From IMG/VR virus record IMGVR_UViG_3300027777_000031, positions 25,864-89,863 of that record: 64,000 bases of DNA. The stretch is one strand, 5' to 3'. Positions 29,576 through 58,300 of this stretch are shown piece by piece. This DNA is from a virus. A program made the position numbers and the translations under genes. The notes below the pieces were generated by a model. That model did no database searches. It worked only from the letters and a program-made list of their open reading frames with translations, and had not been told where the DNA came from. Every line of letters starts with the position of its first letter. Positions within the stretch are counted from its first letter, which is position 1.

Positions 29576-29584
29576 ATTATAAGT

Positions 29585-29912: not shown

Positions 29913-29985
29913 TAGTCAGGACAGGACTCGAACCTGTAACTTTATTCCACTACACGGTTTGCGTCTACCATTCCGCCACCTGACT
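29913..29985 (-). ncRNA. tRNA-like RNA with degenerate anticodon arm
   Basis: AGTCAGG/CCTGACT acceptor, TGGCGGAATGGTAGACGC D-arm, ACAGG-TTCGAGT-CCTGT T-arm. Confidence 0.6.
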
Positions 29986-43692: not shown

Positions 43693-44141
43693 TATACGTG
43701 TGGTATTTGGACTCTCACACAAGTTTGTGCTTGACCCTCGTTCATTAAAAAATTGTTACAAAAACCCATTATATTACTCGCCCCGATTGGATTAGCCGAA
43801 TGAACATACACAATTGGAAACACAAATTTATGAGCTTTTCTTTCACTTCGTGTCATATTAAATCGTTCTTCATTTGTGTTGTGAAATAACGATACCAAAA
43901 ACTTTATAGCATCATAACCGGTTTTTTCGTGAATATTATTATAATCCAAAGTGTAATTTGGTGAAACATTATCAAAATATTCTTTCATTGCTGTATCACC
44001 CAAATCGTGGTCTAAGGAAATAATATCAATATTACCCAACCCAAGTTCATTAACTTTATCTACGAATTCATCGTAATTTCTTACGACAATCCAATTATCT
44101 CCGGTGGGAGTTCTTACGTCATCTAAATAAATTCTATACAT
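43692..44141 (-). CDS. Cyclic-phosphate-processing receiver domain protein
   Basis: IYLDDVR, ISLDHDLG, TGYD, VHSANPIG. Confidence 0.75.
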   Translation of the reverse strand: MYRIYLDDVRTPTGDNWIVVRNYDEFVDKVNELGLGNIDIISLDHDLGDTAMKEYFDNVSPNYTLDYNNIHEKTGYDAIKFLVSLFHNTNEERFNMTRSERKAHKFVFPIVYVHSANPIGASNIMGFCNNFLMNEGQAQTCVRVQIPHV

Positions 44142-44244
44142 ATCTCTTAATTTTGCTACAAAGATAATCAAATATTTGAAATAAAAAAATCCATCACGAA
44201 AAAAATGATGGATTTAATTTGAAACCTTGTTATTTGTTTATTTT

Positions 44245-45105: not shown

Positions 45106-45277
45106 AATTTCCTTATTTTATTTTTTATGTTTATTGAACTTCTCTTCGTTGGTATCAATTCCAACTCAAATGCCTCTGTGGACACGAGAACCTCAGCAAC
45201 AAGGTTTCATTTATAAATATAAGGATACTTTATTTTGTTGTAAATAAAAAACCCCCAAGTTTCATTGGAGGTTGTTG

Positions 45278-45349
45278 TGGCCTCGGGGAATCACGATATC
45301 CCAACCTTTTCGTTATGAGCGAACTGCTCCACCTTTGAGCTACGAGACC
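45278..45349 (-). tRNA. tRNA-CAT (probably Ile2; Met not excluded)
   Basis: Cloverleaf, loop CTCATAA, atypical T-loop ATCGTGA. Confidence 0.75.
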
Positions 45350-45388
45350 AATTATGGGTTTTTAATGAACCCACAAACATATGTCAAC

Positions 45389-45619
45389 TTATTGGTGGTG
45401 TTTCACATACCTACCAAATTTATCAACCCTCACAGAGAGTTTCTCCAATCTAAAGTTCCATTGTTTGAACTTTCCTAAGCCCGATTTAATTCGTGCTTGT
45501 TTAATCGCAGATTCCTCTGCCTTCTCACGTCCTTCTTCCGTAGTTTCTACGAAAAAAGTGGGAGCCTGAACACCGTTATAAACGGGGACTACTCTCCAAA
45601 TTCTCAATTTCTGAGTCAT
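45389..45619 (-). CDS. Hypothetical protein preceded by a uORF and hairpin
   Basis: 76 aa ORF. Confidence 0.6.
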   Translation of the reverse strand: MTQKLRIWRVVPVYNGVQAPTFFVETTEEGREKAEESAIKQARIKSGLGKFKQWNFRLEKLSVRVDKFGRYVKHHQ

Positions 45620-45688
45620 AATACTTGAATAATCAAGTACTACGTGGAGTTGGGTTGGTTGTTTTTCATATTAGTAAATATTATTCAG

Positions 45689-45773
45689 TATCCGGAAAGG
45701 GACTTGAACCCTCAATTTCTCTTCAGAAAACTAGATTTTAAGTCTAGCGTGTATACCATTCCACCACCCGGAT
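45689..45773 (-). tRNA. tRNA-Leu(TAA)
   Basis: CTAGA-CTTAAAA-TCTAG; long variable arm. Confidence 0.9.
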
Positions 45774-45999
45774 GTTTGGAAAAACTGATGAACACGTTAT
45801 CCATCTTTGACTTGAGTTAGTCGTTACCGTTTTTCCGTTTTTTTTGAGAGATTTCCCATTGAAGTAATGTCAATCTCGTCCTAAACCAAACCATACTTTC
45901 TTTTAAGGATAAGAAACTTCTAACTACCTATTTGATGCCACTGACTTTTCTTAACTACAAAAAACAGACTCACAAACTGAACCCCGAAAAAACGACTCG

Positions 46000-46116
46000 T
46001 GGATAGAGTAGGATTCGAACCTACAATAGTACCATACTTTTTCACCTGCCGGTTACTTCAAGGACTCGAACCTCATATTCCGATGCCTCGGACGCTTTAC
46101 CATTTACCACCTACCC
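46000..46116 (-). ncRNA. tRNA-like RNA with two T-arms
   Basis: GGGTAGG/TCTATCC acceptor, TCCGA-GGCA-TCGGA hairpin, two GGTTCGA.TCC arms. Confidence 0.6.
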
Positions 46117-46122
46117 ATTTTG

Positions 46123-46196
46123 AGCTTCCTGTCAGAATCGAACTGACTCTATTCCGGGTTACAAATCCGGTGCACCACCATTCGTGCGTAGGAAGC
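46123..46196 (-). tRNA. tRNA-Thr(TGT)
   Basis: Loop TTTGTAA, cloverleaf. Confidence 0.85.
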
Positions 46197-46351
46197 CTGT
46201 CGCAGAGCATTTTTTTTAAGTAGAAGTCAGCTCTGTCTCTTAAACTACTATTTTAACATCATCACTTCGGCCACATTGGGAGAACCGCAGTTCCCACGTT
46301 GTTTAAGGAGGTAGTTGGCGGTGTATCACACCGAGTTATGATAATGTATTG

Positions 46352-46424
46352 TACCTCAGGAGGGAATCGAACCCTCAAAATCTTGTTCCTAAGACAAGCG
46401 TGTCTACCGTTCCACCACCAAGGC
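46352..46424 (-). tRNA. tRNA-Leu(TAG), short variable loop
   Basis: CTTGT-CTTAGGA-ACAAG. Confidence 0.85.
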
Positions 46425-46432
46425 AATTGTTG

Positions 46433-46504
46433 TACCCTCAATAGGACTCGAACCTATATCAAAACATTAGAAGTGTCTTATTCTATCCCTTGAACTATGA
46501 AGGC
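46433..46504 (-). tRNA. tRNA-Arg(TCT)
   Basis: Loop CTTCTAA. Confidence 0.88.
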
Positions 46505-46511
46505 AATTTTG

Positions 46512-46585
46512 AGTAACTAGCCGGTCTCGAACCGGCCTTATTCCACATTGGAAGTGTGGTGCCATACCTACTAGGCGATAGTTAC
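46512..46585 (-). tRNA. tRNA-Gly(TCC)
   Basis: CCACA-CTTCCAA-TGTGG. Confidence 0.88.
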
Positions 46586-46634
46586 ATTTTAAACTTATAC
46601 CTTGAAAATAAATTTAAATTTTAAATCTATAAGT

Positions 46635-46808
46635 TTATACTTTTGTTTTAAGAGTTTCAATCTCTTTGTTGATTCTCTTCTTATCAGAATCAGTTAATGG
46701 AACTTTCACATCTCGTGTCCCTTTTTCGGTTTTTAAACCATTTTTTAATTGTTTCTCCAACATTTCAAGAACTCTTTGTTGTCTTGACCTTTTTGCTGCT
46801 GTTGCCAT
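46635..46808 (-). CDS. Small basic protein (57 aa)
   Basis: Manual translation MATAAKRSRQQRVLEMLEKQLKNG...KRINKEIETLKTKV. Confidence 0.6.
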   Translation of the reverse strand: MATAAKRSRQQRVLEMLEKQLKNGLKTEKGTRDVKVPLTDSDKKRINKEIETLKTKV

Positions 46809-46831
46809 ACGGATTTAGTTATTAAATTAGT

Positions 46832-46903
46832 TGCAAATCTCAGGAATTGAACCTGATTAAGTCAGCTTATGAGACTGATGAGATACCTTACCTCCCGACT
46901 GCT
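46832..46903 (-). tRNA. tRNA-Met(CAT), bulged acceptor
   Basis: TCAGT-CTCATAA-GCTGA; T-arm TCAGG-TTCAATT-CCTGA. Confidence 0.7.
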
Positions 46904-46918
46904 GTGTATTCTTCTTTG

Positions 46919-46994
46919 TAGCGAAGTGCAGGTACCGCCCCTGCCTTATGTCAAGTTTATGAGACTTGCGGAAACTCTATGCCCCCCACTCGCG
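46919..46994 (-). tRNA. tRNA-Met(CAT), atypical
   Basis: CAAGT-CTCATAA-ACTTG; T-loop GGCGGTA; bulged acceptor. Confidence 0.6.
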
Positions 46995-46999
46995 ATGTA

Positions 47000-47668
47000 T
47001 TATTTTTCGTAATTTTTTTTCCATTTTCTAATAGTATTATCACTAACACCATATTTTTTTCCACACCCTCTATAACCTAAAGAATTAATTTCATCAATCA
47101 ATTGAAAGTAATTAGGTCTCTCAACTTTACGTTGTTTAATTTGAGAACATTTAACACAATTTTTATTTTTTTCAAAAGTTGGATTACCACATTCACATTT
47201 ATGAATAACTTTATCAAGATGTTTCACATTTCTACCTCCGTGAGTAGGTAATCCTGCATTACAGTTAGGACAAACAATTCTTAAATTTTCAATTCTATTG
47301 TCATTATTAACACCATTTATATGGTCTAAAATTAAACTAATTTTATTACCCATCCAATTTTCATCTTGACCACAAATTTCACAACATTTTTGTTTTAATT
47401 CTTCTTTGTAAAGTCTCTCTTTCAAAATAGTTGTATTTAAGTATAATGAATTTTCAACTAAAATATCAACTAATTCTATTTTTTTCTTACCTTTACCACC
47501 GGATGATGTTAGTCTAAAATGATTTGTCGGAATTTCAAATAGATTAATATATTTTTTAACTGTTTGTCTATTACCATAAAATGGTTGTAAACCTAATTTC
47601 TTTGTTACTTCCGAATAATTGTTAGATGAATTAACAATCTTTTCTAAAATTTCTTTTGAATATCTCAT
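47000..47668 (-). CDS. HNH endonuclease within the tRNA array
   Basis: CEICG, LDHINGVNNDNRIENLRIVCPNCN, C-terminal HTH. Confidence 0.85.
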   Translation of the reverse strand: MRYSKEILEKIVNSSNNYSEVTKKLGLQPFYGNRQTVKKYINLFEIPTNHFRLTSSGGKGKKKIELVDILVENSLYLNTTILKERLYKEELKQKCCEICGQDENWMGNKISLILDHINGVNNDNRIENLRIVCPNCNAGLPTHGGRNVKHLDKVIHKCECGNPTFEKNKNCVKCSQIKQRKVERPNYFQLIDEINSLGYRGCGKKYGVSDNTIRKWKKNYEK

Positions 47669-47733
47669 AATCTGTCTTTTATTATAAATATCTCGAACTC
47701 TTAAAAAGTGACAGAAATTTATATTTTTTTTTG

Positions 47734-47809
47734 CGGTCCCGGAGGGTTTCGAACCCTCATTTTAGAGCAGTGACAGTGCAATTCCCCTACCAATGGGGCT
47801 CACAAGACC
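47734..47809 (-). tRNA. tRNA-Asp(GTC)
   Basis: Loop CTGTCAC. Confidence 0.8.
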
Positions 47810-47908
47810 AAAATTTCAATTCAAAGGTGACAATCCTATAACAATTGAAGGAGAAAGAACCGTGTTTCCCGGGTAGTGACTTCCCGTATTCTGTCTTTCT
47901 GTTTTTTG

Positions 47909-47980
47909 TGGAGATATAGGGAATTGAACCCTAATTTACGATTTGCAAAACCATTGTAATAGCCGTTATACTATATCCCC
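47909..47980 (-). tRNA. tRNA-Ala(TGC)
   Basis: G3.U70 pair, loop TTTGCAA. Confidence 0.9.
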
Positions 47981-47985
47981 AATTG

Positions 47986-48057
47986 TAGCCCCACCGGGAG
48001 TCGAACCCGACTTTTTTGGATGAAAACCAAATGTCCTAACCGATAGACGATAGGGCC
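47986..48057 (-). tRNA. tRNA-Glu(TTC)
   Basis: TTTGG-TTTTCAT-CCAAA. Confidence 0.9.
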
Positions 48058-48102
48058 GTTTTATATTACCAATACGTCAATTAACTTGTTTCAGTTTGAT
48101 GG

Positions 48103-48356
48103 TACAAAGATAATACTTTATTTCATTATACCAAACTTTTTTTATCCTTCTCTATCCTCAATAGAAAACCCTGCACTATCGTATTCAGGTCCTTGGTCTT
48201 CTTCCGGAGTGACATTTACCAATCCGTATGTTACACCTAAAATGGGAGAATATTCCATCCCTAACTCTTCATTCATCGTTTTTTTGTCCGACATAATAAT
48301 TACATTTTTAATTCGTTACAAAGATAATACTTTATTTCATTATACCAAACTTTTTT
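48103..48356 (-). repeat. 40-nt direct repeat containing the promoter, flanking a 50-aa acidic ORF
   Basis: TACAAAGATAATACTTTATTTCATTATACCAAACTTTTTT at 48103-48142 and 48317-48356; ORF MSDKKTMNEELG...IEDREG between them. Confidence 0.8.
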
Positions 48357-48357
48357 A

Positions 48358-48393
48358 CAAAAAAAAATCCACCTTTTTTGAAGATGGATTTTT
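48358..48393 (-). terminator. Attenuator terminator upstream of tRNA array 2
   Basis: AATCCATCTT-loop-AAGGTGGATT followed by a T tract. Confidence 0.75.
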
Positions 48394-48419
48394 GAATATT
48401 TTTTTTACTTAAATATATA

Positions 48420-48494
48420 TCATACCATCTGCTTCCAAGTTGTATCTCTACCCTCAGTTCCTGCTATCGTAAGTAATATGTTTAAAGTTTGCAT
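48420..48494 (-). CDS. Putative leader peptide 2, MQTLNILLTIAGTEGRDTTWKQMV
   Basis: 24 codons ending shortly before the terminator; codons match array 2 tRNAs. Confidence 0.7.
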   Translation of the reverse strand: MQTLNILLTIAGTEGRDTTWKQMV

Positions 48495-48566
48495 TTGTTG
48501 TGTTATTGTAATTTCTAATAAATATATACCTTTTTATAAAAGTGTCAAGTATTGGTAAGATTTATT

Positions 48567-48911
48567 TTAATTATCCCAAATATTTTTATCTTTATTCCTT
48601 TTAAGGGATTTTTTATATTCAATAACTTTCTTTGGATTTATGAATCGAACCCCATTATAAACGAACGAGTGATTATCAATTAAGTCATCAATATCGTATT
48701 TGGGCCAATTATTGAAAAATTCAATATCTTTGGTTCTATATTCACCTTCATCATTAAATTCCCATTTTGATGGTCGTATAATCACATCTAAGTCATTAAC
48801 ATCATCAATCATACCGGTGATTACTAATGGCGCGGAGCCAAAAACCGCATAATCCTCAGAATCTAAGTTATAGTCCTTGAGTTTATCCATTAAAAATTTA
48901 AAGTTTTTCAT
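48567..48911 (-). CDS. Small nucleotidyltransferase-like protein
   Basis: YAVFGSAPL...NDLDVII; C-terminal RNKD. Confidence 0.6.
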   Translation of the reverse strand: MKNFKFLMDKLKDYNLDSEDYAVFGSAPLVITGMIDDVNDLDVIIRPSKWEFNDEGEYRTKDIEFFNNWPKYDIDDLIDNHSFVYNGVRFINPKKVIEYKKSLKRNKDKNIWDN

Positions 48912-48930
48912 ATTGATAAATATAAAGAAA

Positions 48931-49126
48931 AAAGTTTAACAACCCCGCCCTCGGGTCGTAGCGGGCTACAATGGGAATTCCGGAATTGGTCGTGTTCCTC
49001 ACCGGCGTACCAGTCCTTATCTATCCTTTACCGTATTTCTACGGTGCTACTGTTGGGAGGTCACCCCTATCAACACGACTAGTCCATTAGTTTTTTAGAG
49101 TATGGACACCCCGGTTGTTAAACTTT
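48931..49126 (-). ncRNA. Putative structured RNA of about 195 nt
   Basis: 14-bp terminal inverted repeat AAAGTTTAACAACC/GGTTGTTAAACTTT; GC-rich internal hairpins; strand assumed. Confidence 0.55.
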
Positions 49127-49135
49127 TTATTTTAA

Positions 49136-49287
49136 AAAAACAGACAATGAGGATTCTCCGATATTTCAGTCTTAGGGGACTAGACGGGCATCATACCCGT
49201 GTTTACCCTCGGCGGTCTCTTGGTTTGATTGATTACTCCGAACCTCACCCCTACACTACCACTGACGTAAGTTATAGGTCTGTTTTT
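49136..49287 (-). ncRNA. Putative structured RNA of about 150 nt
   Basis: Terminal stem AAAAACAGAC/GTCTGTTTTT; internal ACGGG-CATCATA-CCCGT; strand assumed. Confidence 0.45.
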
Positions 49288-49357
49288 ATTTCTTCAGGAG
49301 AGACCCCCAAGGGATAACCATAACGGAATTACCCTTGACTCACTCTCCGTCTTCTTG

Positions 49358-49464
49358 CCCTTCCAGTGGGAATCGAACCCACATACTCTTAATACATTCT
49401 TGGGATGGTTACCGGAGGGAGATGTATTCGTCTCTGTGTTTTGCTCTTGTTAAACTACAGAAGG
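49358..49464 (-). ncRNA. tRNA-like RNA with expanded anticodon domain
   Basis: CCTTCTG/TGGAAGG acceptor, D-arm, T-arm GTGGG-TTCGATT-CCCAC; about 55 nt middle with an AATACAT/ATGTATT stem. Confidence 0.6.
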
Positions 49465-49470
49465 ATGTTG

Positions 49471-49542
49471 CACGCCGCCAAGGACTCGAACCCTGAACTT
49501 TGAGGTTGGAACTCAAAATGATAACCATTTCACCAACGACGC
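49471..49542 (-). tRNA. tRNA-Trp(CCA)
   Basis: TTGAG-TTCCAAC-CTCAA. Confidence 0.85.
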
Positions 49543-49593
49543 ATTTTACTGCTCAAATTTAAGACTATTTACTGCTCAAATTTAAGATTTTTG

Positions 49594-49663
49594 AGGTCTC
49601 GGTGGGAATCGAACCCACTCTGTAGATTTTGCAGACCTACCGGTCGCCACGACCATCAAGACC
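49594..49663 (-). tRNA. tRNA-Cys(GCA)
   Basis: Loop CTGCAAA, U73. Confidence 0.85.
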
Positions 49664-49735
49664 ATTTTAAAAAAACACCCGACCTGACCTGCCAGATATT
49701 ACGTGTCGTAGCGCTTTCGTTACGTAGCGGGTGTT

Positions 49736-50596
49736 TTATTTTACAACAATAAATTTTGTTTTTGGGTTCTCATTTATTTTATCATAAGGAACCACATTCT
49801 CAATTCGTTTATTGGCTATCTTAACATATTCTTCACTAATATCAATTCCTATAAAATTACGATTATTCAACTTAGACATTTTGGATGTTGTCCCGGAACC
49901 AACCATAGGGTCAAGAACAATATCACCCTCATTAGACCAACTCAATATATGGTCTTCAACAAGTTCTTCCGGAAATATTGCAGGATGTTCAAATGCGAAC
50001 GAATCTTTAGTTGAATAATTTTTACCAGTATTATATTGCCAAACATTATATCTATTACCATATTCCGCAATTGTGAAATCCGGCATTTCTTTTAATTCAC
50101 CATCTTTGGTCCTCATAACCCGTTTCCCAAAATTAGAATAACCTGCCCATTTGTTTTTTTTATCTTTCAATAGATTCACCGTTTTTGGTTTTCCTTTAGA
50201 AAATACAAACATATATTCAAAAACTTGAGAATAACGTTTTTTTTCGGGAAAAGGAGCTCCATTTTTCATATAAATCATTGTATCATACAATGTAAATCCT
50301 TGAGACATAAATCCTAATGCTTGTCTAAATGAACTCCCTGTTTCACCACCATTCTTTACTTGGTCACCAACAACCCATACGACAATACCACCATCTTTTG
50401 TGATTCTATATAATTCCGATACCATAGATTCAAAATCAAAACTAAAACCGGTTTCTTTAACTCCCGTAATTTTATTGTTATACGTTCTAAGATTATCGTA
50501 TGGTGGAGACGTAACAGTTAAGTCAACGTAATCATTTTGTATTTCCTTTACAATTTCAATAAAATCGCCAGTTGTGTTGTTATTTAATAATCTCAT
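49736..50596 (-). CDS. N6-adenine/N4-cytosine DNA methyltransferase (beta class)
   Basis: TSPPY precedes HPAIFP and DPMVGSGTT. Confidence 0.9.
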   Translation of the reverse strand: MRLLNNNTTGDFIEIVKEIQNDYVDLTVTSPPYDNLRTYNNKITGVKETGFSFDFESMVSELYRITKDGGIVVWVVGDQVKNGGETGSSFRQALGFMSQGFTLYDTMIYMKNGAPFPEKKRYSQVFEYMFVFSKGKPKTVNLLKDKKNKWAGYSNFGKRVMRTKDGELKEMPDFTIAEYGNRYNVWQYNTGKNYSTKDSFAFEHPAIFPEELVEDHILSWSNEGDIVLDPMVGSGTTSKMSKLNNRNFIGIDISEEYVKIANKRIENVVPYDKINENPKTKFIVVK

Positions 50597-51266
50597 AATT
50601 TACCGGGTTTAACTCTAAGTGATATATTTTTTGTTTAGGAATCACCCCTCCTTTAATTATACAGTTTTCTGTTAGATTATCAATGGACCAATCAGACATT
50701 CTAAAATCAAATGATGTTCTGTGACTATTATCTTTAGCATTTCCACTCCATTTATGTGAACCTAAATCAAATATTCCGGCAAACACTCCACTAAATAAAC
50801 CGTTATTGTTTGTTAACGATAACTTTTTTTCTCTATCAATTTTAAAATTAATTAATAAAAAATTATCAACTTTAGATGTTGATGAAGTTGAACCCTGCCA
50901 AGAATTATCATTTTGACTTAATTTAATCTCCAAGTAATATTTTTCATTAGTAGTAATATCAATAAAAACTAAATCATAACTTTTAACTATATTTGATTCT
51001 CTTTTTAAAACAACCCTTAAAAAAGATTTTTGGGACTCCAAATAATCGTTTAAATTGTACTTTAAAAAGGTATAAAAACTGTGAGACATTTGTGCCGTTA
51101 ATTGTGTGCCAATTTGATTAACCTCTTCTAAATCATAAAACTCATTAAGAGATTCATTGTTTTTACAAGCCCCGTAAAATTGTTGAACAATTAAATTGTT
51201 CTCTATGTGCAAAAACGCATAGTCCACAAAATTAACTCTTTTTAATTCATTTATTACTTTTTTCAT
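50580..51266 (-). CDS. Putative PD-(D/E)XK restriction endonuclease
   Basis: YDLVF...YLEIKLS; overlaps the methyltransferase start. Confidence 0.5.
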   Translation of the reverse strand: MKKVINELKRVNFVDYAFLHIENNLIVQQFYGACKNNESLNEFYDLEEVNQIGTQLTAQMSHSFYTFLKYNLNDYLESQKSFLRVVLKRESNIVKSYDLVFIDITTNEKYYLEIKLSQNDNSWQGSTSSTSKVDNFLLINFKIDREKKLSLTNNNGLFSGVFAGIFDLGSHKWSGNAKDNSHRTSFDFRMSDWSIDNLTENCIIKGGVIPKQKIYHLELNPVNYEIIK

Positions 51267-51318
51267 AGTTATTTATTTTTCAACAAAGATACAACTATTT
51301 TTTAATCTGCCAAAATTT

Positions 51319-51828
51319 TTAGAAAAATAAATATGGTTCCCACTCTTTTGGAATTTCGTGATGAACCTGTTTCATCAACATCAAATAGTGTGGTCGTCTT
51401 GGCTGTGGAATTTCCTTACCATACTCTTCCAAAGTCAAATTTGACTTCTCACTATTACATTTTCTACAAGCCGTAACCAAGTTGTCCCAAGAATCTTTCC
51501 CCCCCTTAGATTGGGGGATTACGTGGTCTAATGTCAATGTCTTTCTATTACTATCACCACAATACACACACTCAAAGTTATCTCTACGATAAACATTCTC
51601 TCGACTTAAAGGAACTTTTTGAATTACCTGATTCACATATTTATAAACCCGGATAATTGATGGTTTTTTGATATCCAATTCAGGATTCACTAATTTAAAT
51701 GATTCCGGATGTTCGTGGACGATGTCGGCATTACCTTTATAAGAAATGACGAAAGCCCTCTCTGTGGATATAATACTCCTTGCCATAAAACTTGAATCCA
51801 AAACCAAAGTTTTTTGGTACTTACTCAC
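51319..51828 (-). CDS. HNH endonuclease (McrA-like)
   Basis: RDNFECVYCG, TLDHVIPQSKGG, NLVTACRKCNSEK. Confidence 0.88.
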   Translation of the reverse strand: MSKYQKTLVLDSSFMARSIISTERAFVISYKGNADIVHEHPESFKLVNPELDIKKPSIIRVYKYVNQVIQKVPLSRENVYRRDNFECVYCGDSNRKTLTLDHVIPQSKGGKDSWDNLVTACRKCNSEKSNLTLEEYGKEIPQPRRPHYLMLMKQVHHEIPKEWEPYLFF

Positions 51829-51862
51829 GACTTTTGATTTTTTAATTAAACATTCTTTTTTG

Positions 51863-51934
51863 TGACCCCGGAGAATTTCGAAATCTCGACTCCCAAGTTA
51901 AAAGCTTGGTACTCTACCGCTGAGTTACGAGGTC
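51863..51934 (-). tRNA. tRNA-Lys(TTT)
   Basis: CCAAG-CTTTTAA-CTTGG. Confidence 0.9.
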
Positions 51935-52018
51935 AATATTGAGCTCATTTTGTTTTGTTATTTGGCTCAAATTATAAGTAATTTGAGCTTAATAATCAAA
52001 CTCTATGAGCCACATTTG

Positions 52019-52092
52019 TAGGTGGTATGAGACTCGAACTCATAACCTCTTCGGTATCAGCGAAGGACTCCAACCAATTGAGCTAACCACCT
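52019..52092 (-). tRNA. tRNA-Ile(GAT)
   Basis: CTTCG-CTGATAC-CGAAG. Confidence 0.9.
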
Positions 52093-52156
52093 AAAATCTA
52101 ATTCTACGCTTCCCCCATACTGTTAGGGTTCTATAAATTAGTAACAATCTCCCTCG

Positions 52157-52229
52157 TCGAGAATGTACGATTCGAACGTCTCCTCATACGTCCAAGGTAT
52201 GAATGCAGCCTGGTTACACCTCATTCTCG
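52157..52229 (-). tRNA. tRNA-Pro(TGG)
   Basis: CATAC-CTTGGAC-GTATG. Confidence 0.8.
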
Positions 52230-52232
52230 TTT

Positions 52233-52415
52233 TTAACTTATTTTTAATTTTCCTGAACGATAATCTTCTTGCATTTGTCGTATTCTTTCGTCTCTTTTTT
52301 CAATACTCTTTTTTATCCTTTCAATTTTTTCAGGACTTGGGTTAGAATCAATTGTATAAACTACCCCCATTTCATCTAATTCTTTTAAGAATTCTTTTGT
52401 TTCAAATTTTTTCAT
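52233..52415 (-). CDS. Hypothetical protein (60 aa)
   Basis: Start MKKFETKEF; lies between two tRNAs. Confidence 0.55.
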   Translation of the reverse strand: MKKFETKEFLKELDEMGVVYTIDSNPSPEKIERIKKSIEKRDERIRQMQEDYRSGKLKIS

Positions 52416-52429
52416 AACATTATGTTTTG

Positions 52430-52515
52430 CGGAGAGCAGAATACTCGAAATCCATCCATTTAACCGAACCACTCGCTTAGCAGGCGGTGACAATACCCTG
52501 ATTGTTTTACTCTCC
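52430..52515 (-). tRNA. tRNA-Ser(GCT)
   Basis: GGAGAG acceptor, loop CTGCTAA, long variable arm, G73. Confidence 0.8.
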
Positions 52516-52521
52516 ATTTTG

Positions 52522-52594
52522 TGTCTCCAGCAGGAGTCGAACCCACATCATCTAGTCCGTAGCCAGACGTTTTATCCAATTAAACTATGGAGAC
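52522..52594 (-). tRNA. tRNA-Arg(ACG)
   Basis: TCTGG-CTACGGA-CTAGA. Confidence 0.88.
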
Positions 52595-52600
52595 ATTTTG

Positions 52601-52706
52601 TAGTCAGGACAGGACTTGAACCTGTACTGCCGGGAATTCAAATAGGAGCGATTAACACTATTCCCCAATTTACCTATTTTAGCGTTTACCATTCCGCCAC
52701 CTGACC
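52601..52706 (-). ncRNA. tRNA-like RNA, same family as 29913-29985
   Basis: GGTCAGGTGGCGGAATGGTAAACGC...ACAGGTTCAAGTCCTGTCCTGACT with a longer, unrelated middle. Confidence 0.6.
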
Positions 52707-52801
52707 AATTTGAGGTTGAGAACTCCTCTGTGTTATTCTTTACTGTTTGTTGCAACAACCTTGTAGCCACTCTATATCCTTTCTCAAGGGAACAACACAT
52801 T

Positions 52802-52990
52802 TTACTTCCATTGAGTTTTTCGGTTATACTTCCAAGTTTTATGTTCTCTGTATTTGTGAGAAAATTGTCCTTTTCTGTAATGAACACCCTCATCCCAATA
52901 AGATGGGTATTCAAACTTTAACCAAATCAATCTGTAATCTTTGGAACAAGTTGCCTTGTTCAATTTCATTCTGTTTGTGTTTACACTCAT
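52802..52990 (-). CDS. Small basic aromatic protein preceded by a uORF and hairpin
   Basis: MSVNTNRMKLNK...TWKYNRKTQWK. Confidence 0.6.
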   Translation of the reverse strand: MSVNTNRMKLNKATCSKDYRLIWLKFEYPSYWDEGVHYRKGQFSHKYREHKTWKYNRKTQWK

Positions 52991-53059
52991 AATCTCTGAG
53001 CCCATTGTTTAGTGGACCTCAAAGATTGTCTAATACTTTTTTCATAATATTTTAATTTT

Positions 53060-53132
53060 GGGTGTTAGGACGGTACCGCCCCGTCTTCTTTGGTTCCACA
53101 AACCAACGCTTCACTAAAAAGCTTCAAACACC
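53060..53132 (-). tRNA. tRNA-His(GTG)
   Basis: TTGGT-TTGTGGA-ACCAA; T-loop GGCGGTA. Confidence 0.8.
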
Positions 53133-53208
53133 ATATTACCCCACTTCACCGGCTTAACGGACCGGCTGCCATATGGGAGTGGGGGTTTCCTGTTATATCA
53201 GGACTCCG

Positions 53209-53280
53209 CGGACTTGGGGAATTTCGAAATCCCGACCCTTCACTTAACAGGCGAACGCTCTTCCTCTGAGCTACAAGTCC
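53209..53280 (-). tRNA. tRNA-Asn(GTT)
   Basis: Loop CTGTTAA. Confidence 0.88.
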
Positions 53281-53430
53281 AATTTTGACCACTATGTTAT
53301 TTTGCGAACGTATGAAGCTCGTATCATTATTAAATCATAGTAGTCCAAGGCGTTACGCATCCGTCTGTAACTTTACTTTTCTTGAGTCCCGATGTGGCCA
53401 CATCAACTCTGGGAACGATTACCTTGTTTG

Positions 53431-53503
53431 TGGGGATTACAGGTTACGCTCCTGTCTCTTTGATTCTTCAGACCAACGCTTTCACTAGATTAGCTTAATC
53501 CCC
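53431..53503 (-). tRNA. tRNA-Phe(GAA)
   Basis: Loop CTGAAGA; T-loop AGCGTAA. Confidence 0.8.
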
Positions 53504-53646
53504 AATTAAAATGATGGTGAGATACCCGTTTCGTCTCACTCTTGACTGCTTAATAGTAGTTTTACTGTGCACAGGCAGAGGGTTATAATTTCGTTTGTTG
53601 TAATCAGAATTGTCGACATTCTTTCATACTGAAATTCATCATTTTG

Positions 53647-53727
53647 TGGGACACTATGGAATCGAACCATACCCTACTACAGAACGGTGTTACAGACCGC
53701 TTATCACACCAGTGACTGAAGCATCCC
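53647..53727 (-). tRNA. tRNA-Tyr(GTA)
   Basis: GCGGT-CTGTAAC-ACCGT; long variable arm. Confidence 0.82.
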
Positions 53728-53777
53728 AATTAATTTATTCTATTTCACACTACCGGACTTTATCAGGATGTGGTTTT

Positions 53778-53846
53778 TACCTTGCAGGACTTGAACCTGC
53801 GTCTTATCGGCTCCCGCCGATTGTTCCACCAACCGCAACTAAAGGT
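53778..53846 (-). ncRNA. tRNA-like domain with 5-bp acceptor and tetraloop anticodon arm
   Basis: ACCTT/AAGGT, ATCGGC-GGGA-GCCGAT, GCAGG-TTCAAGT-CCTGC. Confidence 0.5.
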
Positions 53847-53858
53847 TGAATAAATTTG

Positions 53859-53929
53859 TACCCCGAGATGGAATTGAACCACCACCATTTGTATGTAAGA
53901 CAAATACGCTTCCATTACGCCATCGGGGC
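53859..53929 (-). tRNA. tRNA-Val(TAC)
   Basis: TTTGT-CTTACAT-ACAAA. Confidence 0.88.
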
Positions 53930-53935
53930 AAATTG

Positions 53936-54003
53936 TACCGAGAAATGGTAACGCTCCATTCTATAGTCGGATATGAGCCGTCTATGGTCCTTGACCTCTC
54001 GAT
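53936..54003 (-). tRNA. tRNA-Met(CAT), reduced D-arm
   Basis: Loop CTCATAT; T-loop AGCGTTA. Confidence 0.55.
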
Positions 54004-54058
54004 GTTTTTGGTGGACATAGATTCATCACCTACTCTTGGGTTTCCACCGAACCCTTCG

Positions 54059-54130
54059 TTACCCCTGAGAGAATCGAACTCCCCCCGCGTGGACCAAAAC
54101 CACGTGTACTAACCGATATACGAAGGGGCA
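54059..54130 (-). tRNA. tRNA-Gln(TTG)
   Basis: CGTGG-TTTTGGT-CCACG; U1-A72. Confidence 0.88.
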
Positions 54131-54232
54131 AAATATTTTTTAGTTAAAGAACGGTTACCACAATTACGTTCGCCCCGGACTCTACTCCGGACATTCTTTT
54201 TTGGGTGTGGATTAAACTATTTAACTAACCCG

Positions 54233-54320
54233 CGGAAGGAGTGGGACTCGAACCCACACGTGTGTTACCACCAACGGTTTTCAAGACCGCGACCCGTAGA
54301 CCGACTTGGCTTACCCTTCC
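54233..54320 (-). tRNA. tRNA-Ser(TGA)
   Basis: GCGGT-CTTGAAA-ACCGT; long variable arm. Confidence 0.88.
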
Positions 54321-54409
54321 ATTTTTTCTTACCAATATTTCAAATAACTTGTTCCTTTATTTTGATGGGACAAAGGTAATCCTTTTTTTCTAACTTCCAA
54401 TTTTTTTAT

Positions 54410-54443
54410 AAAAAAAAATCCTGAACTTTTTGAGTTCAGGATT
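54410..54443 (-). terminator. Attenuator terminator upstream of tRNA array 1
   Basis: AATCCTGAACT-CAAAA-AGTTCAGGATT followed by a T tract. Confidence 0.8.
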
Positions 54444-54467
54444 CTTATTATATGTTATGATTAATTT

Positions 54468-54590
54468 TTATTCAAAAATAATATCACTTAATAAATCAGC
54501 TGAACTTGTATGCGAAATACGCGGATACGAACAATTACTAAATTGTTGGTTCCAAATTGAGACATTCATATGTTTATTAGTGTTTTTCAT
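54468..54590 (-). CDS. Putative leader peptide 1, MKNTNKHMNVSIWNQQFSNCSYPRISHTSSADLLSDIIFE
   Basis: 40 codons between promoter TAAGTTTG (54638-54645) and the terminator; codons match array 1 tRNAs. Confidence 0.72.
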   Translation of the reverse strand: MKNTNKHMNVSIWNQQFSNCSYPRISHTSSADLLSDIIFE

Positions 54591-54679
54591 TTTTCTTTTT
54601 TTTGTGGTATTTCTACCTGTGTTTCTTATAACTATCACAAACTTACGAAAAGTTTAATAAAAGTCAAATATTTTTTTTA

Positions 54680-54946
54680 TTATACCAATCTTTTTGCGAT
54701 ATCGGTAATTCTATTTTCATCTTCAGGTGATAACAAATGTCTTGAATCTCTGAGTTTCACTAATGACTCCCACCACTCATCATCTAATAGAGTGTTGTGA
54801 ATGTTTGTGGGTTTAACTTGTCCGTTGAATGAATCTAAATGACCTTCTTCAACAAGAGCCTCAATTAACTCTTTAACTTCTCTATTGGAACACGCTGAGA
54901 TATAGTCCCAAGCATCAATATCAATTTCTGTACTAAAATCTGGCAT
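54680..54946 (-). CDS. Hypothetical protein
   Basis: 88 aa ORF. Confidence 0.65.
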   Translation of the reverse strand: MPDFSTEIDIDAWDYISACSNREVKELIEALVEEGHLDSFNGQVKPTNIHNTLLDDEWWESLVKLRDSRHLLSPEDENRITDIAKRLV

Positions 54947-54949
54947 AAT

Positions 54950-55210
54950 TTATAAATTTTCTAATCTGTTAATAATTTTTGTTACTTCTTCTTTTGAATT
55001 CCACCCTAAAACATCATTACCGTCTTCCATTGGTACAAACTTACCAAGTGTTTTGTAGAATGCAGCGACTTCAAATGAAGTTGTTCCATTTCCGTATAAA
55101 CCTTCACCACCAACAACAGAAACTTCAATATCGTTTCCTAAGTCCAATCTTGCTTGAACTCCGTTACGTATTACGTGTGGTTTAAATACTAAATCATCAA
55201 ATGTTTTCAT
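54950..55210 (-). CDS. Hypothetical protein
   Basis: MKTFDDLVF...GLYG..FEVA; promoter at 55215-55222. Confidence 0.7.
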   Translation of the reverse strand: MKTFDDLVFKPHVIRNGVQARLDLGNDIEVSVVGGEGLYGNGTTSFEVAAFYKTLGKFVPMEDGNDVLGWNSKEEVTKIINRLENL

Positions 55211-55368
55211 AGGACAAAAGTAATATAAGTTATTTAATTAAACAAATTTATTTTAAAAAAGTTTTGGGCAACAAAAAGGTGTCTTACGACACCCTTCTGC
55301 TAGATTTAGAATTCTCCCCTTTCTTTTAGATGGTTAATCCCATCCGGTTTTCTACACCGGAGGTACGT

Positions 55369-58300
55369 TTAAGGCTGTACCGCCTTTGTTTTCATTTCTT
55401 GAGCTTTATCTTTAAGTTTGTTTGAGATATTACCCAATACAGGACAAATTAATTTATGAACACCTTTATGAATGTTTTTTGTTAATTCTGTTCTGTCAAT
55501 TGATTTATCTAAACCATCTTTAACAATTGACGAAATATCATTATTTTCAATATCTTGATTTTTAGACACTTTACTAATAATCGCATCTGACATTGATGAT
55601 GAGATTTTTTTAGCGATAAAGTCACAATCAACAATTTTGTCCAAATCTTCAATGTGAATATCGTTTATTGCTTTTTTAATTTTTTCACCCATCCATCCGT
55701 TAGGATTAATTGATGTTAATTTATCAACTAAATGTTTACCCATATATTCTTTAAATGTTGAGAAGATGGCATTTGACCCGTGTTCTCCGAATAAACCTTT
55801 TAATGATTCCCAAAACTCTTCTTTAATAAGTTGTTTATCAAAACCTTGAGAATTAAGATACATTGCTTCAGAAATAATTTCATTGAAGAATTTTTCTCTT
55901 GGTTGTTTGAATTTAAGAATTCTATTTTCAGTTAATATTTTAGTTCTTGTTTGAATAATTCTAGTTTCCGCTAATAAATTATTAGTTTTTTGTTCAGATA
56001 ATTTTTGTAAATTTTCTTTAATTAAATTAGTCAATTTTACTTTAGATTCATTCATTTGTCTCGTGTCAAGAGTCAACGGTAAAAATGGATTTTTACCTGA
56101 TGGACCTACTTTTGGTAATTTGAAATGTTCACCTGTTAATAATTTTTGAACATCTTTAATATCTAAATCACTACCAAATCCACGCAATCCTGTAAATGGA
56201 TTATCTTTATCTGTAAATTGAACATCTATATCCGTAGCCGTAATTGGACTCATCTTATCAAATACTCCACTTCTATAACATCCTTGTAATCCTTTTCTAA
56301 CAGCGTTAGAATTAAGACTATTATTTGCGGTACCTTGTTTTTCAAATTCAAATGCCGCTGAAAGATATGCCACTAAATCTGCTCTACATTTAGCAGGGTC
56401 GTACTTAGCACCTTTAAAATCATTTGTAAGTCTTTCACCACGAGGAATGAATATCTTAATTTGTTTATCCATATAGGTTAATCCTAAAGCATCTGCAGTA
56501 ACTGTGTTGTATTGGTCTAACTCATCATTTGGTGGATAAGTCATTGACGTTTCATTCACAGGTAAAAGTTTAGTACGATTTGGGTCCCAATAAGTTAACA
56601 TATCATTCCAACTTTTAAACACCATTGACCTAGCCTTTTTAGTGTTTATTAAATCTTGGAATCTATCAGTTAATGTTCTTATTTGATAATATGGGTCTGA
56701 ATTATAATCTAACGGATTAATACCAAATAGTCTTAAAATTTCTGTTTGTTGTGGTGCAATATCCTCAAAAGGAATTCCTTTAATGTGACTAATAACTCCT
56801 TTATTATCTCTAAGATATTTAAATTCACAAGAGTCACCTTGTCTTACTAATATTGTACCATTATAAGTTAAATAAGCTGTACTACCATCTTTTAATTTAA
56901 ATGATTTACCCGCGAAATATACTTTACCACCTTCAACAACAACCGGTTTAGATGTCTGATTTTTTGTTCTACATAATGTCTCTAAAGTTCCTGTATTTTT
57001 TAATATAGGATTTGTTTGTAAAGCATTTAATTCATCTGCAGGTGCCATAACAACTTCTTGTGTTTCCTGCGTTTGTTCTATAATAAAATTGTTAACCTCA
57101 TTAATAACTCTTTCTAAAGCATCCATAGCCGATTCATTTTGATTTAAATTTAAAGGTTTGTTGATATCAAAACCTTTGATTTCAGGAAATTTTTTGTTAG
57201 ATAATTCTGAAAATGGACTTGATTTTTTAACTTCCGGTTTAAAACTAATTTCAGGTTTATTTGTGCCTGATAATTCATCCGGTGTTGTCCAACTACTTCC
57301 AAAGAAATTTTGTTCCGGTTTTCTTGTTTTATCAGGAGAAGTTACCCATCCTGAACTTGCAGTCCATACTTGACCATCTTCAGTTGTAATAACTAGACTA
57401 TTATTTTTACAAGACCATTTACCATATACTTTAGTTCCGTCTTTAGAAACATATAAGAATGTAAAATCTTCCCAGAAAAATCCTAAATCGTTACCAAATG
57501 CGGCGATTACAATTTCTTTTCCATCACTATCTTGAGATAATTTAAGATTTTTTATAATTTTAATACAAACAGCCCATTCCGGTAAATTTGCCGGTGTTGT
57601 GTCAGTATCTACTGTAGTATTTACAGTGGATGCTGTTGAGGTATCGGTAGTTGATGGGTTACAGTCTTTAACTAAATCAGCATACGCCTTATTTAATATT
57701 TGAACTGAACTATCGTATTTAGGATTATCGCTGATATTAAAAATTCTACCGGTTTTAACTCTTTTGGCTAACCATTTACAATTTTTACTAACTTGATAAA
57801 CATACATTTTACTTCCCGTTGGGTCTGTTAACCATTCTGTTGATGTTGGGATTTCATCTGTATCATCTGTATGTGGTGGTTTTGGTGGTTGTATGATAGA
57901 ATCATTTTTATGTTTTTCCCACCAAGCTTCTAAATCCTCTTTAGTATTGTAAATCCATTTACCACCTTTTTTAATTAATGATGGAATACCTCTTTTAATT
58001 TTTTTCCAAAATTCTTCACCACCGGTTTTTATTCTTCTTAATAATTCAGCGTCAGTAATTGTGTCCCAATTGATTGGGTCTTCTTGTTGATTACCACCAG
58101 TTCCTCCACAAATTTTTAAATCTTTTGCCCAATTTAAATCACAGACATAAACTTCATAAAATCGTTTTTTATCTTTAGGAAAATAAACAACTTTACCTTT
58201 ATTAGGTCCTTTTTGAAATTTAGTTTTATGTAACCAATCGTAGAAATTATTTGTTGTGTTTTCTGATAAAAAATATTGTTTTTCAAAACTATCAGAATCT

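Follow-up and report, generated by a model that had tools for sequence, protein, structure and literature searches.

The locus lies in the genome of an uncultured large phage with a Bacteroidota-type host, where a leader cassette stands ahead of about 15 tRNA genes; by the window we mean the whole stretch of 64,000 nucleotides that was analyzed. Along the minus strand the parts follow each other as a promoter (P1), an A-rich initiation region, a 40-codon open reading frame (ORF), an intrinsic terminator, a second promoter box and tRNA-Ser (Table 1). The motif TTTG-N17-21-TANNTTTG has 20 matches in the window, while 4.4 would be expected, and none of 100 shuffles reached 20. P1 is kept in the relatives that we inspected. 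The Bacteroidota promoter consensus, as described in a passage of PMC6847099, rarely has G at -9, and P1 itself carries G at this position. In Flavobacterium johnsoniae, an A at -3 and at -6 promotes initiation (PMC6847099), and the alignment columns directly 5' of the leader ATG are invariant. The first 27 residues of the ORF listed in a first-pass annotation of this DNA are the same as those that we read directly in the sequence. A longer, GTG-started frame of 56 amino acids was set aside because its start falls within the P1 -7 box.

Table 1. Features of the leader cassette and of the tRNA array behind it, in minus-strand order (positions in the window)
Feature	Position	Strand	Description
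Promoter P1	54638..54668	-	TTTG, 19 nt, TAAGTTTG; Bacteroidota -33/-7 type; predicted start near 54633
5' untranslated region	54591..54633	-	A-rich; A at -3 and -6; no Shine-Dalgarno sequence
Leader ORF	54468..54590	-	40 codons plus TAA; ATG at 54590, stop TAA at 54470-54468
In-ORF hairpin	54523..54553	-	Codons 13-23; inner 7 bp invariant
Antiterminator strand (putative)	54500..54507	-	AAGTTCAG, codons 28-31; complementary to loop-side half of terminator 5' arm
Antiterminator loop (putative)	54447..54499	-	ORF tail, stop codon and spacer; hypervariable; regional identity 0.62
Intrinsic terminator	54410..54446	-	14-bp stem, then run of 9 T
Promoter P2	54366..54401	-	-7 box TACCTTTG at 54378-54371; degenerate -33 element (ATTG) in the window; predicted start near 54366
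5' leader before first tRNA	54321..54365	-	About 45 nt, conserved; near copy before tRNA-Glu of array 2
tRNA array 1	49470..54320	-	ARAGORN (default and relaxed), Rfam and relatives' alignment; same set in relatives

Array 1 runs in the order Ser-TGA, Gln, Met-CAT, Val-TAC, a tRNA-like element, Tyr, Phe, Asn, His, Arg-ACG, Ser-GCT, Pro, Ile-GAT, Lys, three protein genes, Cys and Trp, the last two lying 2.2 kb further on, beyond the protein genes and another promoter match. The first-pass annotation had counted 15 tRNAs here, and a total of about 15 stands, but ARAGORN at its default settings calls only 11 in 49470-54320, and the rest come from Rfam, a relaxed threshold or the relatives. Phe (53431-53503) and Pro (52158-52228) were added by Rfam, and Ser-GCT (52429-52515) was called only at the relaxed ARAGORN threshold. 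Met-CAT (about 54002-53932) was missed by both programs; the candidate can be folded into a cloverleaf and lines up with Met-CAT tRNAs called by ARAGORN at this position in the relatives. The extra tRNA-like element (53775-53849), which that earlier list lacked, has a tetraloop where the anticodon loop is expected. No similar cassette was seen at the third tRNA pair (Tyr and Thr, 29483-29985), and a search of deposited phage genomes for near-identical copies of 53800-55800 gave no match.

The leader frame and its codons

Alignment of 54 distinct homologous sequences from lake metagenomes reveals that the frame is open in all of them, with lengths of 36, 40 or 41 codons and TAA or TAG as the stop. 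Insertions and deletions within the ORF measure 3 or 9 nt and are all in frame, and the stop is kept though the tail is only 62% identical. Codons 1 to 30 are nearly invariant and codons 31 to 40 hypervariable. The near invariance of codons 5 to 30 includes the third positions (variable columns, counted by codon position, number 3, 8 and 10 of 27 each), which fits a constraint on the RNA or on the nascent peptide as well as it fits reading by tRNAs. Within codons 13 to 23, the invariance of the third positions can be attributed to the in-ORF hairpin, where 9 of 12 pairs never vary, A58G turns one pair into G-U and 23 of the 54 sequences break pair 52:73, at a regional identity of 0.979. This element may act as a pause or timing hairpin.

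Searches of Pfam and PHROGs with the leader peptide, a second leader peptide (see below) and three neighbouring proteins gave no family match. Among 5.8 billion proteins, the leader peptide found 12 close clusters only, 84 to 95% identical and either nameless or labelled "hypothetical protein," so that distant variants for further covariation were not at hand. A scan with a 15-nt pattern of the promoter block proved unspecific (at least 120 stretches); seven of the fetched loci passed our filter, of which L083 and L131 were useful.

We took codons 2 to 25 as the sensing part of the leader, since a ribosome stalled there would leave the motif AGTTCAG further down the frame free. Of these 24 codons, array 1 anticodons can read 22 by strict wobble (background 0.50; P=1.9e-5) and 23 if superwobble is allowed (P=2.9e-5), and of the other 15 leader codons they can read 8. 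The sensing part covers all 14 amino acids of the array, in agreement with the proposal that the leader samples the whole array and with its two reservations: Thr4 (ACT) has no reader in array 1 of the window, and GTC can be read by Val-TAC only through superwobble. Among 23,061 windows of 27 residues from the 83 long ORFs of the phage, one has at least 26 residues in the set and three include all 14 amino acids. Random ORFs (n=39,768) reach 26 in the set 73 times and cover all 14 amino acids 104 times but never do both, and the leader ORF alone does both among the 263 small ORFs of the record. Arginine is encoded by CGT, which makes up 14% of the Arg codons of the phage and is read by Arg-ACG of array 1, while the reader of AGA (72% of the Arg codons), Arg-TCT, belongs to the other array.

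The match is a property of the family as well. All 54 variants cover the 14 amino acids, with a median in-set fraction of 0.96 in the sensing part versus 0.44 in the tail, and the only out-of-set codons found in the sensing part are ACT, ACA and AGA. Each tRNA is sampled by one to five leader codons and there are no tandem runs, so that sensitivity to any single tRNA may be low. A second cassette, unrelated in sequence, heads the other array (48494-48363); 15 of 17 codons at its positions 2 to 18 are readable by its own array with superwobble (P=2.6e-4), and 2 of 17 by array 1. This second cassette is the weaker one, for its commoner form pairs over 5 to 6 bp only and most relatives have small protein genes with promoters of their own between cassette and tRNAs.

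Pairing between the leader and the terminator

The first-pass annotation had pointed to AGTTCAG in the leader as the complement of CTGAACT in the terminator 5' arm. Both were found, at 54506-54500 and 54439-54433, the latter within a 14-bp hairpin (5' arm, 54446-54433; loop, 54432-54428; 3' arm, 54427-54414) that ends in a T run and whose stem is paired in 98.5% of the cells across 54 sequences. The antiterminator strand and CTGAACT are 52 to 64 nt apart in the 54 aligned forms, and the incomplete contig L161 shows a much shorter spacer. By itself a 7-nt complementarity is weak (P=0.02 with shuffles, 0.076 with random genomic 140-mers), but it is strengthened by covariation. With a single exception, every row shows standard pairing in the helix columns (98-104 : 180-186 of the alignment), and in 8 of the 54 rows two adjacent pairs have changed on both sides, A-U to G-C and G-C to A-U, with a further pair gained. 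The observed covariation score was reached in none of 500 shuffles, and every slid control scored lower.

These same eight rows leave the 3' arm of the terminator unaltered, while the top terminator pair is broken (in nine rows) and one G-U pair is taken; the change therefore goes with the upstream strand rather than with the terminator. The complementarity is thus kept in the homologues, in these 8 of 54 by changes on both sides. The covariation, which is carried by eight linked sequences and broken in one recombinant (L194), probably goes back to one evolutionary event. Gene conversion between the two direct AGTTCAG copies, one in the upstream strand and one in the 3' arm, was set aside because the eight covarying upstream strands differ from the 3' arm and match the complement of the 5' arm.

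Folding of the RNA as it would stand before the 3' arm is made places the helix AGUUCAG:CUGAACU in the predicted minimum-energy fold of all 54 sequences when a ribosome is stalled at codon 20 (median pair probability, 0.97) and of 45 when no ribosome is present (fold energies of -8.9 to -20.6 kcal/mol). With the A site at codon 30, the antiterminator is predicted to be blocked in all 54 (P=0.0), and in the full-length RNA the terminator is predicted to win over it. The models thus agree with the earlier suggestion of a stable alternative structure that an upstream stall would leave free. It had also described further imperfect pairing inward, which is present in the fold of the window (TTTATTA with TAATAAG), but its sequence is not conserved and other variants form different inner stems. 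We sought an anti-antiterminator (1:2 pairing), which would cause termination on an untranslated leader, in the folds and found none that was convincing: the only partner for the antiterminator strand was a weak 5-bp one, UGAAY in codons 8 and 9, and the antiterminator persisted in the 45 ribosome-free folds mentioned above.

Between the end of the antiterminator strand and the stop codon lie 29 nt (17 nt in most 36-codon forms, 14 nt in L180). A ribosome that has reached the stop would leave AGTTCAG uncovered, and the geometry is therefore not of the trpL type; in this state the helix is still predicted, with a median P of 0.92 when sterics are ignored. Because the stop lies so far downstream, termination would need a ribosome whose passage over codons 25 to 35 is well timed, or else a second one.

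Four metatranscriptome runs contain parts of the region as assembled contigs, which do not allow ends, strand or level to be read and may include DNA. Run X7 gave one exact contig (54401-54676), both ends of which lie in A/T runs. Contigs bridging the terminator to tRNA-Ser came from X20 (54262-54441, 1 difference) and X22 (54322-54471, 12 differences), again with DNA possibly present.

A putative attenuator and its alternatives

We consider the cassette to be a ribosome-dependent transcription attenuator in front of the phage tRNA array, a reading to which we give roughly even credence and in which we infer translation of the leader, ribosome stalling, timing, read-through and the signal that is sensed. 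Transcripts from P1, plus any arriving from upstream genes, would bear the 40-codon leader. Within it, AAGUUCAG (codons 28-31) would pair with the loop-side half of the terminator 5' arm, where the terminator hairpin would have to nucleate; if this helix formed first, the terminator would come too late and transcription would continue through tRNA-Ser and the genes behind it. Under brisk translation, a ribosome would lie over AAGUUCAG during synthesis of the terminator, which would then form and end the transcript near 54410. With a ribosome held in codons 2 to 25, or with none at all, AAGUUCAG would be free and read-through would follow. Slow reading of the leader codons would, in short, probably lead to more array tRNA. 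The sensing codons make up, almost exactly, a set with at least one per tRNA species of the array, so that shortage of or damage to any one of these tRNAs, or of its host counterpart, would raise the whole set, and P2 would supply a basal level that bypasses the gate.

The predicted folds also leave room for a switch that is real and driven by translation yet reports something more general. As 45 of the 54 variants are predicted to form the antiterminator by default when no ribosome is present, any loss of translation would give read-through, and the cassette could respond to general translation capacity (failure of initiation or elongation, host shut-off or ribosome-targeting defences) or to a programmed arrest by the nascent peptide, the codon match being a by-product. 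Residues 5 to 30 are indeed conserved beyond the needs of a codon list, third positions included, as is seen in arrest peptides, and tandem regulatory codons are lacking. We nevertheless judge this reading unlikely, since the codon set matches the array beyond chance and does so at the isoacceptor level (CGT and not AGA, ATT/ATC and not ATA), and since the second cassette has the complementary codon bias. Moreover, none of the 54 variants has gained Ala, Asp, Glu, Gly or Leu by substitution within the sensing part, and the hairpin accounts for the third-position invariance of codons 13 to 23.

The second promoter, named as a caveat by the first-pass annotation, is well supported: of 57 distinct sequences downstream of the terminator, 55 have the -7 box of P2. 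P2 lies between terminator and tRNAs, so that in this phage the latter do not depend on read-through, and a near copy of P2 and the conserved leader block behind it heads array 2. Such an arrangement would suit a separate small gene that encodes a 40-residue peptide or yields a small RNA of about 225 nt, has a promoter of its own and ends in an efficient terminator that insulates the tRNA operon, with tRNAs driven by P2 and an AGTTCAG pairing of no regulatory role. The strength of the terminator (14 bp, a 9-T run and far greater stability than the alternative at equilibrium), the high conservation of the peptide and the fact that a 7-nt complement is not rare by itself are in keeping with this, as is the variable spacing between terminator and P2, which includes a 38-nt insertion in some relatives, as for separate modules. 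The compensatory changes point the other way, since they hold the pairing of the upstream strand with the 5' arm while weakening the terminator. In addition, the P2 box is absent in L153/L160 and L169, where the terminator stands 38 to 40 nt ahead of tRNA-Pro, and tRNA expression must there pass through the terminator; L153 and L160 have the same tRNA set in rotated order, and in L169 only the first tRNAs are seen. A small gene would also leave the codon match unexplained, and its peptide would belong to no family, with no more than 12 close clusters among the proteins searched. We therefore regard an independent gene as rather improbable.

It is very improbable that the frame is untranslated and that a protein, a small RNA or a tRNA sets a riboregulator by binding the conserved 5' part, for although codons 5 to 30 are as conserved in nucleotides as the terminator, the fold is significantly stable (z = -5.55 over 241 nt) and variable sites are not enriched at third codon positions, the frame persists, together with length class and stop, across the hypervariable tail with indels in frame only, the initiation region matches the Bacteroidota pattern, and no Rfam family at threshold and no T-box was found.

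Relation to known systems and meaning

The reasons for tRNA genes in phages, and the occasions of their use, have been under debate for decades. In the literature covered, we found no description of such control of tRNA genes. Leader-peptide attenuators, multivalent ones among them, are familiar from enterobacteria (ilvGMEDA and thr; also trpL, hisL, pheL and leuL). The phage cassette resembles them in having a promoter, a short leader and a terminator whose 5' arm has an alternative partner in or near the leader, in regulatory codons that match the downstream product and in the read-through that a slowed ribosome would cause here. It differs in what is controlled, tRNAs instead of biosynthetic enzymes, and in sampling about 14 amino acids once or a few times each, whereas the enterobacterial leaders carry runs of one to three amino acids. 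Its stop is, moreover, too distal for a ribosome there to mask the antiterminator, no clear 1:2 anti-antiterminator was seen in its folds, and P2 lies behind its terminator. The only Rfam hit for this RNA, Thr_leader (RF00506), scored 29.7 bits, below the gathering score of 55 (E=0.03), and covered the terminator only (54410-54467).

T-box riboswitches are also terminator/antiterminator switches that report the state of tRNA. A T-box senses a single uncharged tRNA by direct binding, works without a ribosome and governs synthetase or amino-acid genes. The leader cassette, as proposed, would likewise be a switch on tRNA state, but no T-box was among the 32 Rfam matches at E up to 1 in 44000-56000.

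Closer to the presumed host, amino-acid operons of Flavobacterium psychrophilum have been inferred to be preceded by leader-peptide attenuators, with the same TAnnTTTG promoter type and the same class of mechanism as proposed here (PMC9723704). Those cases concern amino-acid operons of the host, and the passage describing them makes no mention of tRNA genes (PMC9723704). The trn operon of Anabaena sp. PCC 7120 is a long tRNA array that is reported to stay silent until translation is impaired (PMC8421152, PMC10272220). There too an accessory tRNA array goes up when translation is in trouble, and the RNA ligase gene rtcB is co-regulated with it; control, however, is at the promoter, through the repressor TrcR on direct repeats, and the words "leader," "attenuat" and "terminator" have 0 occurrences in the main text of PMC8421152. 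A motive for sensing tRNA loss is offered by reports that phage tRNAs counter tRNA-cleaving defences by replacing destroyed host tRNAs (PMC10264068, PMC11555353, PMC11464382); these reports deal with the function of tRNAs and not with the regulation of their genes.

If the attenuator reading is true, the loss of any tRNA of the array, through host anticodon nucleases or host shut-off, would be sensed as a slowed ribosome, and replacements would be transcribed. The cassette would then be the first cis-acting sensor that ties decoding speed to the transcription of tRNA genes, and it would extend the logic of trp and his attenuation from amino-acid supply to tRNA supply, with more than a dozen species surveyed at once. 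That large phages gate their arrays with such "codon inventory" leaders, each array behind a mini-gene with a codon for every tRNA in it, as a feedback from decoding to tRNA synthesis without a protein regulator that was invented independently in several lineages, is a wider principle of phage tRNA biology that we put forward tentatively and consider possible rather than probable. With about 230 nt, the cassette would be a compact part for reporting tRNA availability in Bacteroidota, and the leader would make it possible to predict the tRNAs that work as a single unit for a phage.

Elements of the leader and of tRNA array 1

Read-through into tRNA array 1 may be gated by a ribosome-dependent attenuator whose sensing codons are those that the array serves, a reading that we hold at even balance. 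The elements concerned are listed in the table.

Features of the two leader cassettes
Feature	Position	Strand	Basis or remark
P1, promoter ahead of the leader ORF	54668-54638	minus	TTTG-N17-21-TANNTTTG type
A-rich 5' region, A at -3 and -6	between P1 and leader ORF	minus	sequence
Leader ORF, 40 codons	54590-54468	minus	sequence
Terminator, 14-bp hairpin and nine-T run	54446-54410	minus	
Second -7 box TACCTTTG (P2)	54378-54371	minus	
Shared 5' leader, ~45 nt, ahead of tRNA-Ser-TGA	54321-54365	minus	
tRNA-Ser-TGA, first tRNA of array 1	begins 54320	minus	
Second cassette: promoter, 24-codon ORF, terminator	48494-48363	minus	sequence unrelated to first
Shared 5' leader, ~45 nt, ahead of first tRNA of array 2	48058-48104	minus	

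The window covers the final 64 kb of a virus record in IMG/VR that is 89.9 kb long and has an estimated completeness of about 30%. A near-identity search against deposited phage genomes gave no match, and the relatives of the phage are freshwater metagenome contigs reaching 322 kb in length. The expression signals are of Bacteroidota type: a two-part motif, TTTG-N17-21-TANNTTTG, given as the -33/-7 consensus of Bacteroidota in PMC6847099 and PMC9723704, occurs 20 times in the window versus 4.4 expected (0 of 100 shuffles reach 20).

The first-pass annotation had counted 15 tRNAs in array 1; the number stands, but default ARAGORN alone yields only 11 of them. The Phe and Pro tRNAs were added by Rfam, Ser-GCT was called by ARAGORN only with a relaxed threshold, and Met-CAT (~54002-53932, minus) was missed by ARAGORN even then and by Rfam at E up to 1. 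This Met-CAT homologue folds into a cloverleaf with a non-canonical T-loop (AGCGTTA) and can be aligned to Met-CAT tRNAs called by ARAGORN at the equivalent position in relatives. A tRNA-like element (53775-53849, minus) has a normal T-arm, a 5-bp acceptor stem and, in place of the anticodon loop, a 6-bp stem with a GGGA tetraloop; ARAGORN labels it 'tRNA-??? (gg)', as it does at the same array position in two homologous loci (L013, L018). Three protein genes inside the array (49736-51828, minus) separate Lys from Cys and Trp. From translations read by eye, one may carry an HNH-like Cys/His pattern, a 228-aa product is of no assigned kind, and a 286-aa product might resemble a DNA methyltransferase. 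A promoter match lies at 51284-51314 within this stretch.

Match between leader codons and array 1

The codon test window (codons 2-25) was set by anatomy, not by outcome: a ribosome whose A site is at codon i was taken to cover about three more codons, and AAGTTCAG starts in codon 28, so stalls at codons 2-25 leave it free. The proposal that the leader samples the array was borne out, as 22 of these 24 codons are readable by array-1 anticodons under strict wobble (background 0.50 from the long ORFs of the phage; P=1.9e-5) and 23 with superwobble (P=2.9e-5), while 8 of the 15 leader codons outside this range are readable. The range contains all 14 amino acids that array 1 serves; less in keeping with an attenuator, each tRNA is sampled by one to five codons, without runs. 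Among 23,061 windows of 27 residues from 83 long phage ORFs, one reaches 26 in-set residues and three have all 14 amino acids; among 39,768 random-sequence ORFs of phage composition the numbers are 73 and 104, with both in none. The leader ORF is the sole one of the record's 263 small ORFs with both the in-set count and full coverage. The match reaches isoacceptor level: the Arg codon is CGT (14% of phage Arg codons), read by Arg-ACG of array 1, and not AGA (72%), read by Arg-TCT of array 2; the Ile codon is ATT, not ATA.

Searches with an upstream 88-aa gene (three related loci), a degenerate leader pattern (17 viral loci) and a relaxed one (69 metagenome stretches) placed the motif in 93 loci in total, from which 54 distinct sequences complete from just 5' of the ATG to the T-run were aligned. 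All 54 keep an open leader frame of 36, 40 or 41 codons, with in-frame indels and a TAA or TAG stop. Pairwise identity averages 0.92-0.98 across codons 1-31 and 0.95 in the terminator, but only 0.62 in the ORF tail and spacer. Substitutions in the sensing part (codons 2-25) are limited to K, R, T, S, N, I, V, P and H, its out-of-set codons are only ACT, ACA and AGA, and all 14 amino acids are covered in each variant; the median in-set fraction is 0.96, versus 0.44 in the tail. Some variants have Ser, Ile or Asn at position 4, which is Thr in the window and was flagged earlier as the outlier. Variable columns number 3, 8 and 10 of 27 at codon positions 1, 2 and 3, without third-position excess, another awkward point for the attenuator reading. 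The peptide matched no family in Pfam or PHROG and has only 12 close clusters among 5.8 billion proteins.

The terminator/antiterminator switch

The complementarity of AGTTCAG to the terminator 5' arm is, taken singly, weak evidence: 2% of shuffles and 7.6% of random genomic 140-mers contain a perfect complement of at least 7 nt. Comparison among homologues gives stronger evidence. Eight of the 54 sequences carry AGATTCAG for AAGTTCAG in the upstream strand and CTGAATCT for CTGAACTC in the 5' arm, with two adjacent pairs swapped (A-U to G-C; G-C to A-U) and one further pair gained. The covariation score was matched by 0 of 500 column shuffles, and all slides of the 3' partner by 1 to 3 columns scored lower. 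The terminator 3' arm is unaltered in these eight, whose terminator has acquired a G-U and lacks the top pair; the 5' arm therefore tracked the upstream strand and not its terminator partner, which also rules out that one of the two direct AGTTCAG repeats was copied onto the other. The eight vary in N-termini and tails, and the covariation is most simply a single event. Complementarity is thus conserved in the homologues, with one exception: a metagenome contig (L194), apparently recombinant, combines the common upstream strand with the variant arm and has the only mismatched antiterminator, which is predicted to be weaker (-8.9 kcal/mol, versus -11.0 to -20.6 in the remaining 53).

The alternative structure expected upon an upstream stall was also predicted. 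In RNA ending just 5' of the 3' arm, with a ribosome stalled at codon 20, the antiterminator helix is in the minimum-energy fold of 54/54 (median P 0.97), and in ribosome-free RNA lacking the 3' arm it is predicted in 45/54. With the A site on codon 30 its probability is 0.0 in all 54, and in the full-length fold the terminator displaces it completely. The helix takes up the loop-side half of the 5' arm and no more, and nucleation of the terminator hairpin presumably has to occur there. Another hairpin, within the ORF (codons 13-23, inner 7 bp invariant), accounts for the invariant silent sites there and might conceivably time RNA polymerase.

The stop codon lies 29 nt downstream of the end of the antiterminator strand, 17 nt in most 36-codon forms and 14 nt in one (L180); its position shifts within the 52-64 nt between the two antiterminator strands of the 54 forms. 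With a ribosome on the stop codon the helix is still predicted (median P 0.92, sterics ignored). Since such a ribosome would leave the strand unmasked, termination would need a ribosome moving over codons 25-35, or a following one, as the terminator forms. Also less easy to fit, no convincing anti-antiterminator was found in folds of the leader variants. Assembled contigs from four metatranscriptome runs include parts of the region, some over the leader and some from terminator to tRNA-Ser, and these are uninformative on transcript ends and strand. The main rival reading accepts the switch but makes it a reporter of general translation failure or of nascent-peptide arrest; it is appreciably less probable than codon sensing.

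Related systems, P2 and forms without it

The second cassette backs the codon-sensing idea, less cleanly than the first. Its codons 2-18 are readable by array 2 at 15/17 with superwobble (P=2.6e-4) and 11/17 strictly (P=0.013), versus 2/17 by array 1, and the complement of its own terminator 5' arm lies in the last ORF codons. After removal of 4 unrelated hits from 28, 24 distinct variants fall into two forms, arm CCATCTCC with GGAGATGG (8 bp) and arm CCATCTTC with only 5-6 bp. In most relatives this terminator is separated from the tRNAs by small protein genes that have promoters of their own. The consensus promoter block TTTGGTATAATGAAATAAAGTATTATCTTTG occurs in two identical copies (48105-48135 and 48319-48349, minus), one ahead of a 50-codon ORF and the other ahead of tRNA-Glu; the intervening gene varies among relatives.

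Multivalent leader-peptide attenuators act on amino-acid operons. The first cassette is like them in its ORF, terminator, exclusive antiterminator and matching codons, but differs in having an internal promoter and no masking by a stop-codon ribosome; termination timing is looser than in trpL. It belongs to no Rfam family, scoring 29.7 bits for Thr_leader (threshold 55), with no T-box match. Among published accessory tRNA arrays under regulation, the closest is the trn operon of Anabaena, in which the repressor TrcR acts at the promoter; 'leader', 'attenuat' and 'terminator' each occur 0 times in the main text of PMC8421152. Our searches of the phage tRNA and Bacteroidetes attenuation literature found no account of such control of tRNA genes.

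The caveat raised earlier about a second promoter below the terminator stands: of 57 distinct sequences downstream, 55 have its -7 box; its -33 element varies (ATTG in the window, TTTG in many relatives). The promoter-plus-leader block also stands ahead of tRNA-Glu of array 2. The ~45-nt leaders of the two arrays share sequence, and their 3' half (…TTTGANATATTGGTAA…) persists in L153 and L169 although the promoter is missing there; a role in processing is one possibility among others. Some relatives (L003, L004 and others) have a 38-nt insertion between terminator and P2 with an inverted repeat (TGAAAT…ATTTCA), absent from the window.

Three loci (L153, L160, L169) keep leader and terminator intact without P2: the T-run is followed by 38-40 nt without a TAnnTTTG box and then tRNA-Pro. 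After Pro, the rotated array of L153 and L160 reads Ile, Lys, Cys, Trp, Asn, Tyr, Gln, Met, Val, Phe, His; in L169, just Pro and Ile were read. The first tRNAs of these loci can be reached only via the terminator. The reading as a separate small gene, insulated by its terminator, is unlikely and hard to reconcile with the covariation and with these P2-less forms. An untranslated riboregulator, at odds with the preserved frame, is very improbable. Under the favored attenuator reading, P2, lying between terminator and tRNAs, gives the tRNAs of the window's phage a supply that bypasses the gate, which fits that reading less neatly. The leader in L153 and L160 is tied to the tRNA set and not to a particular first gene.
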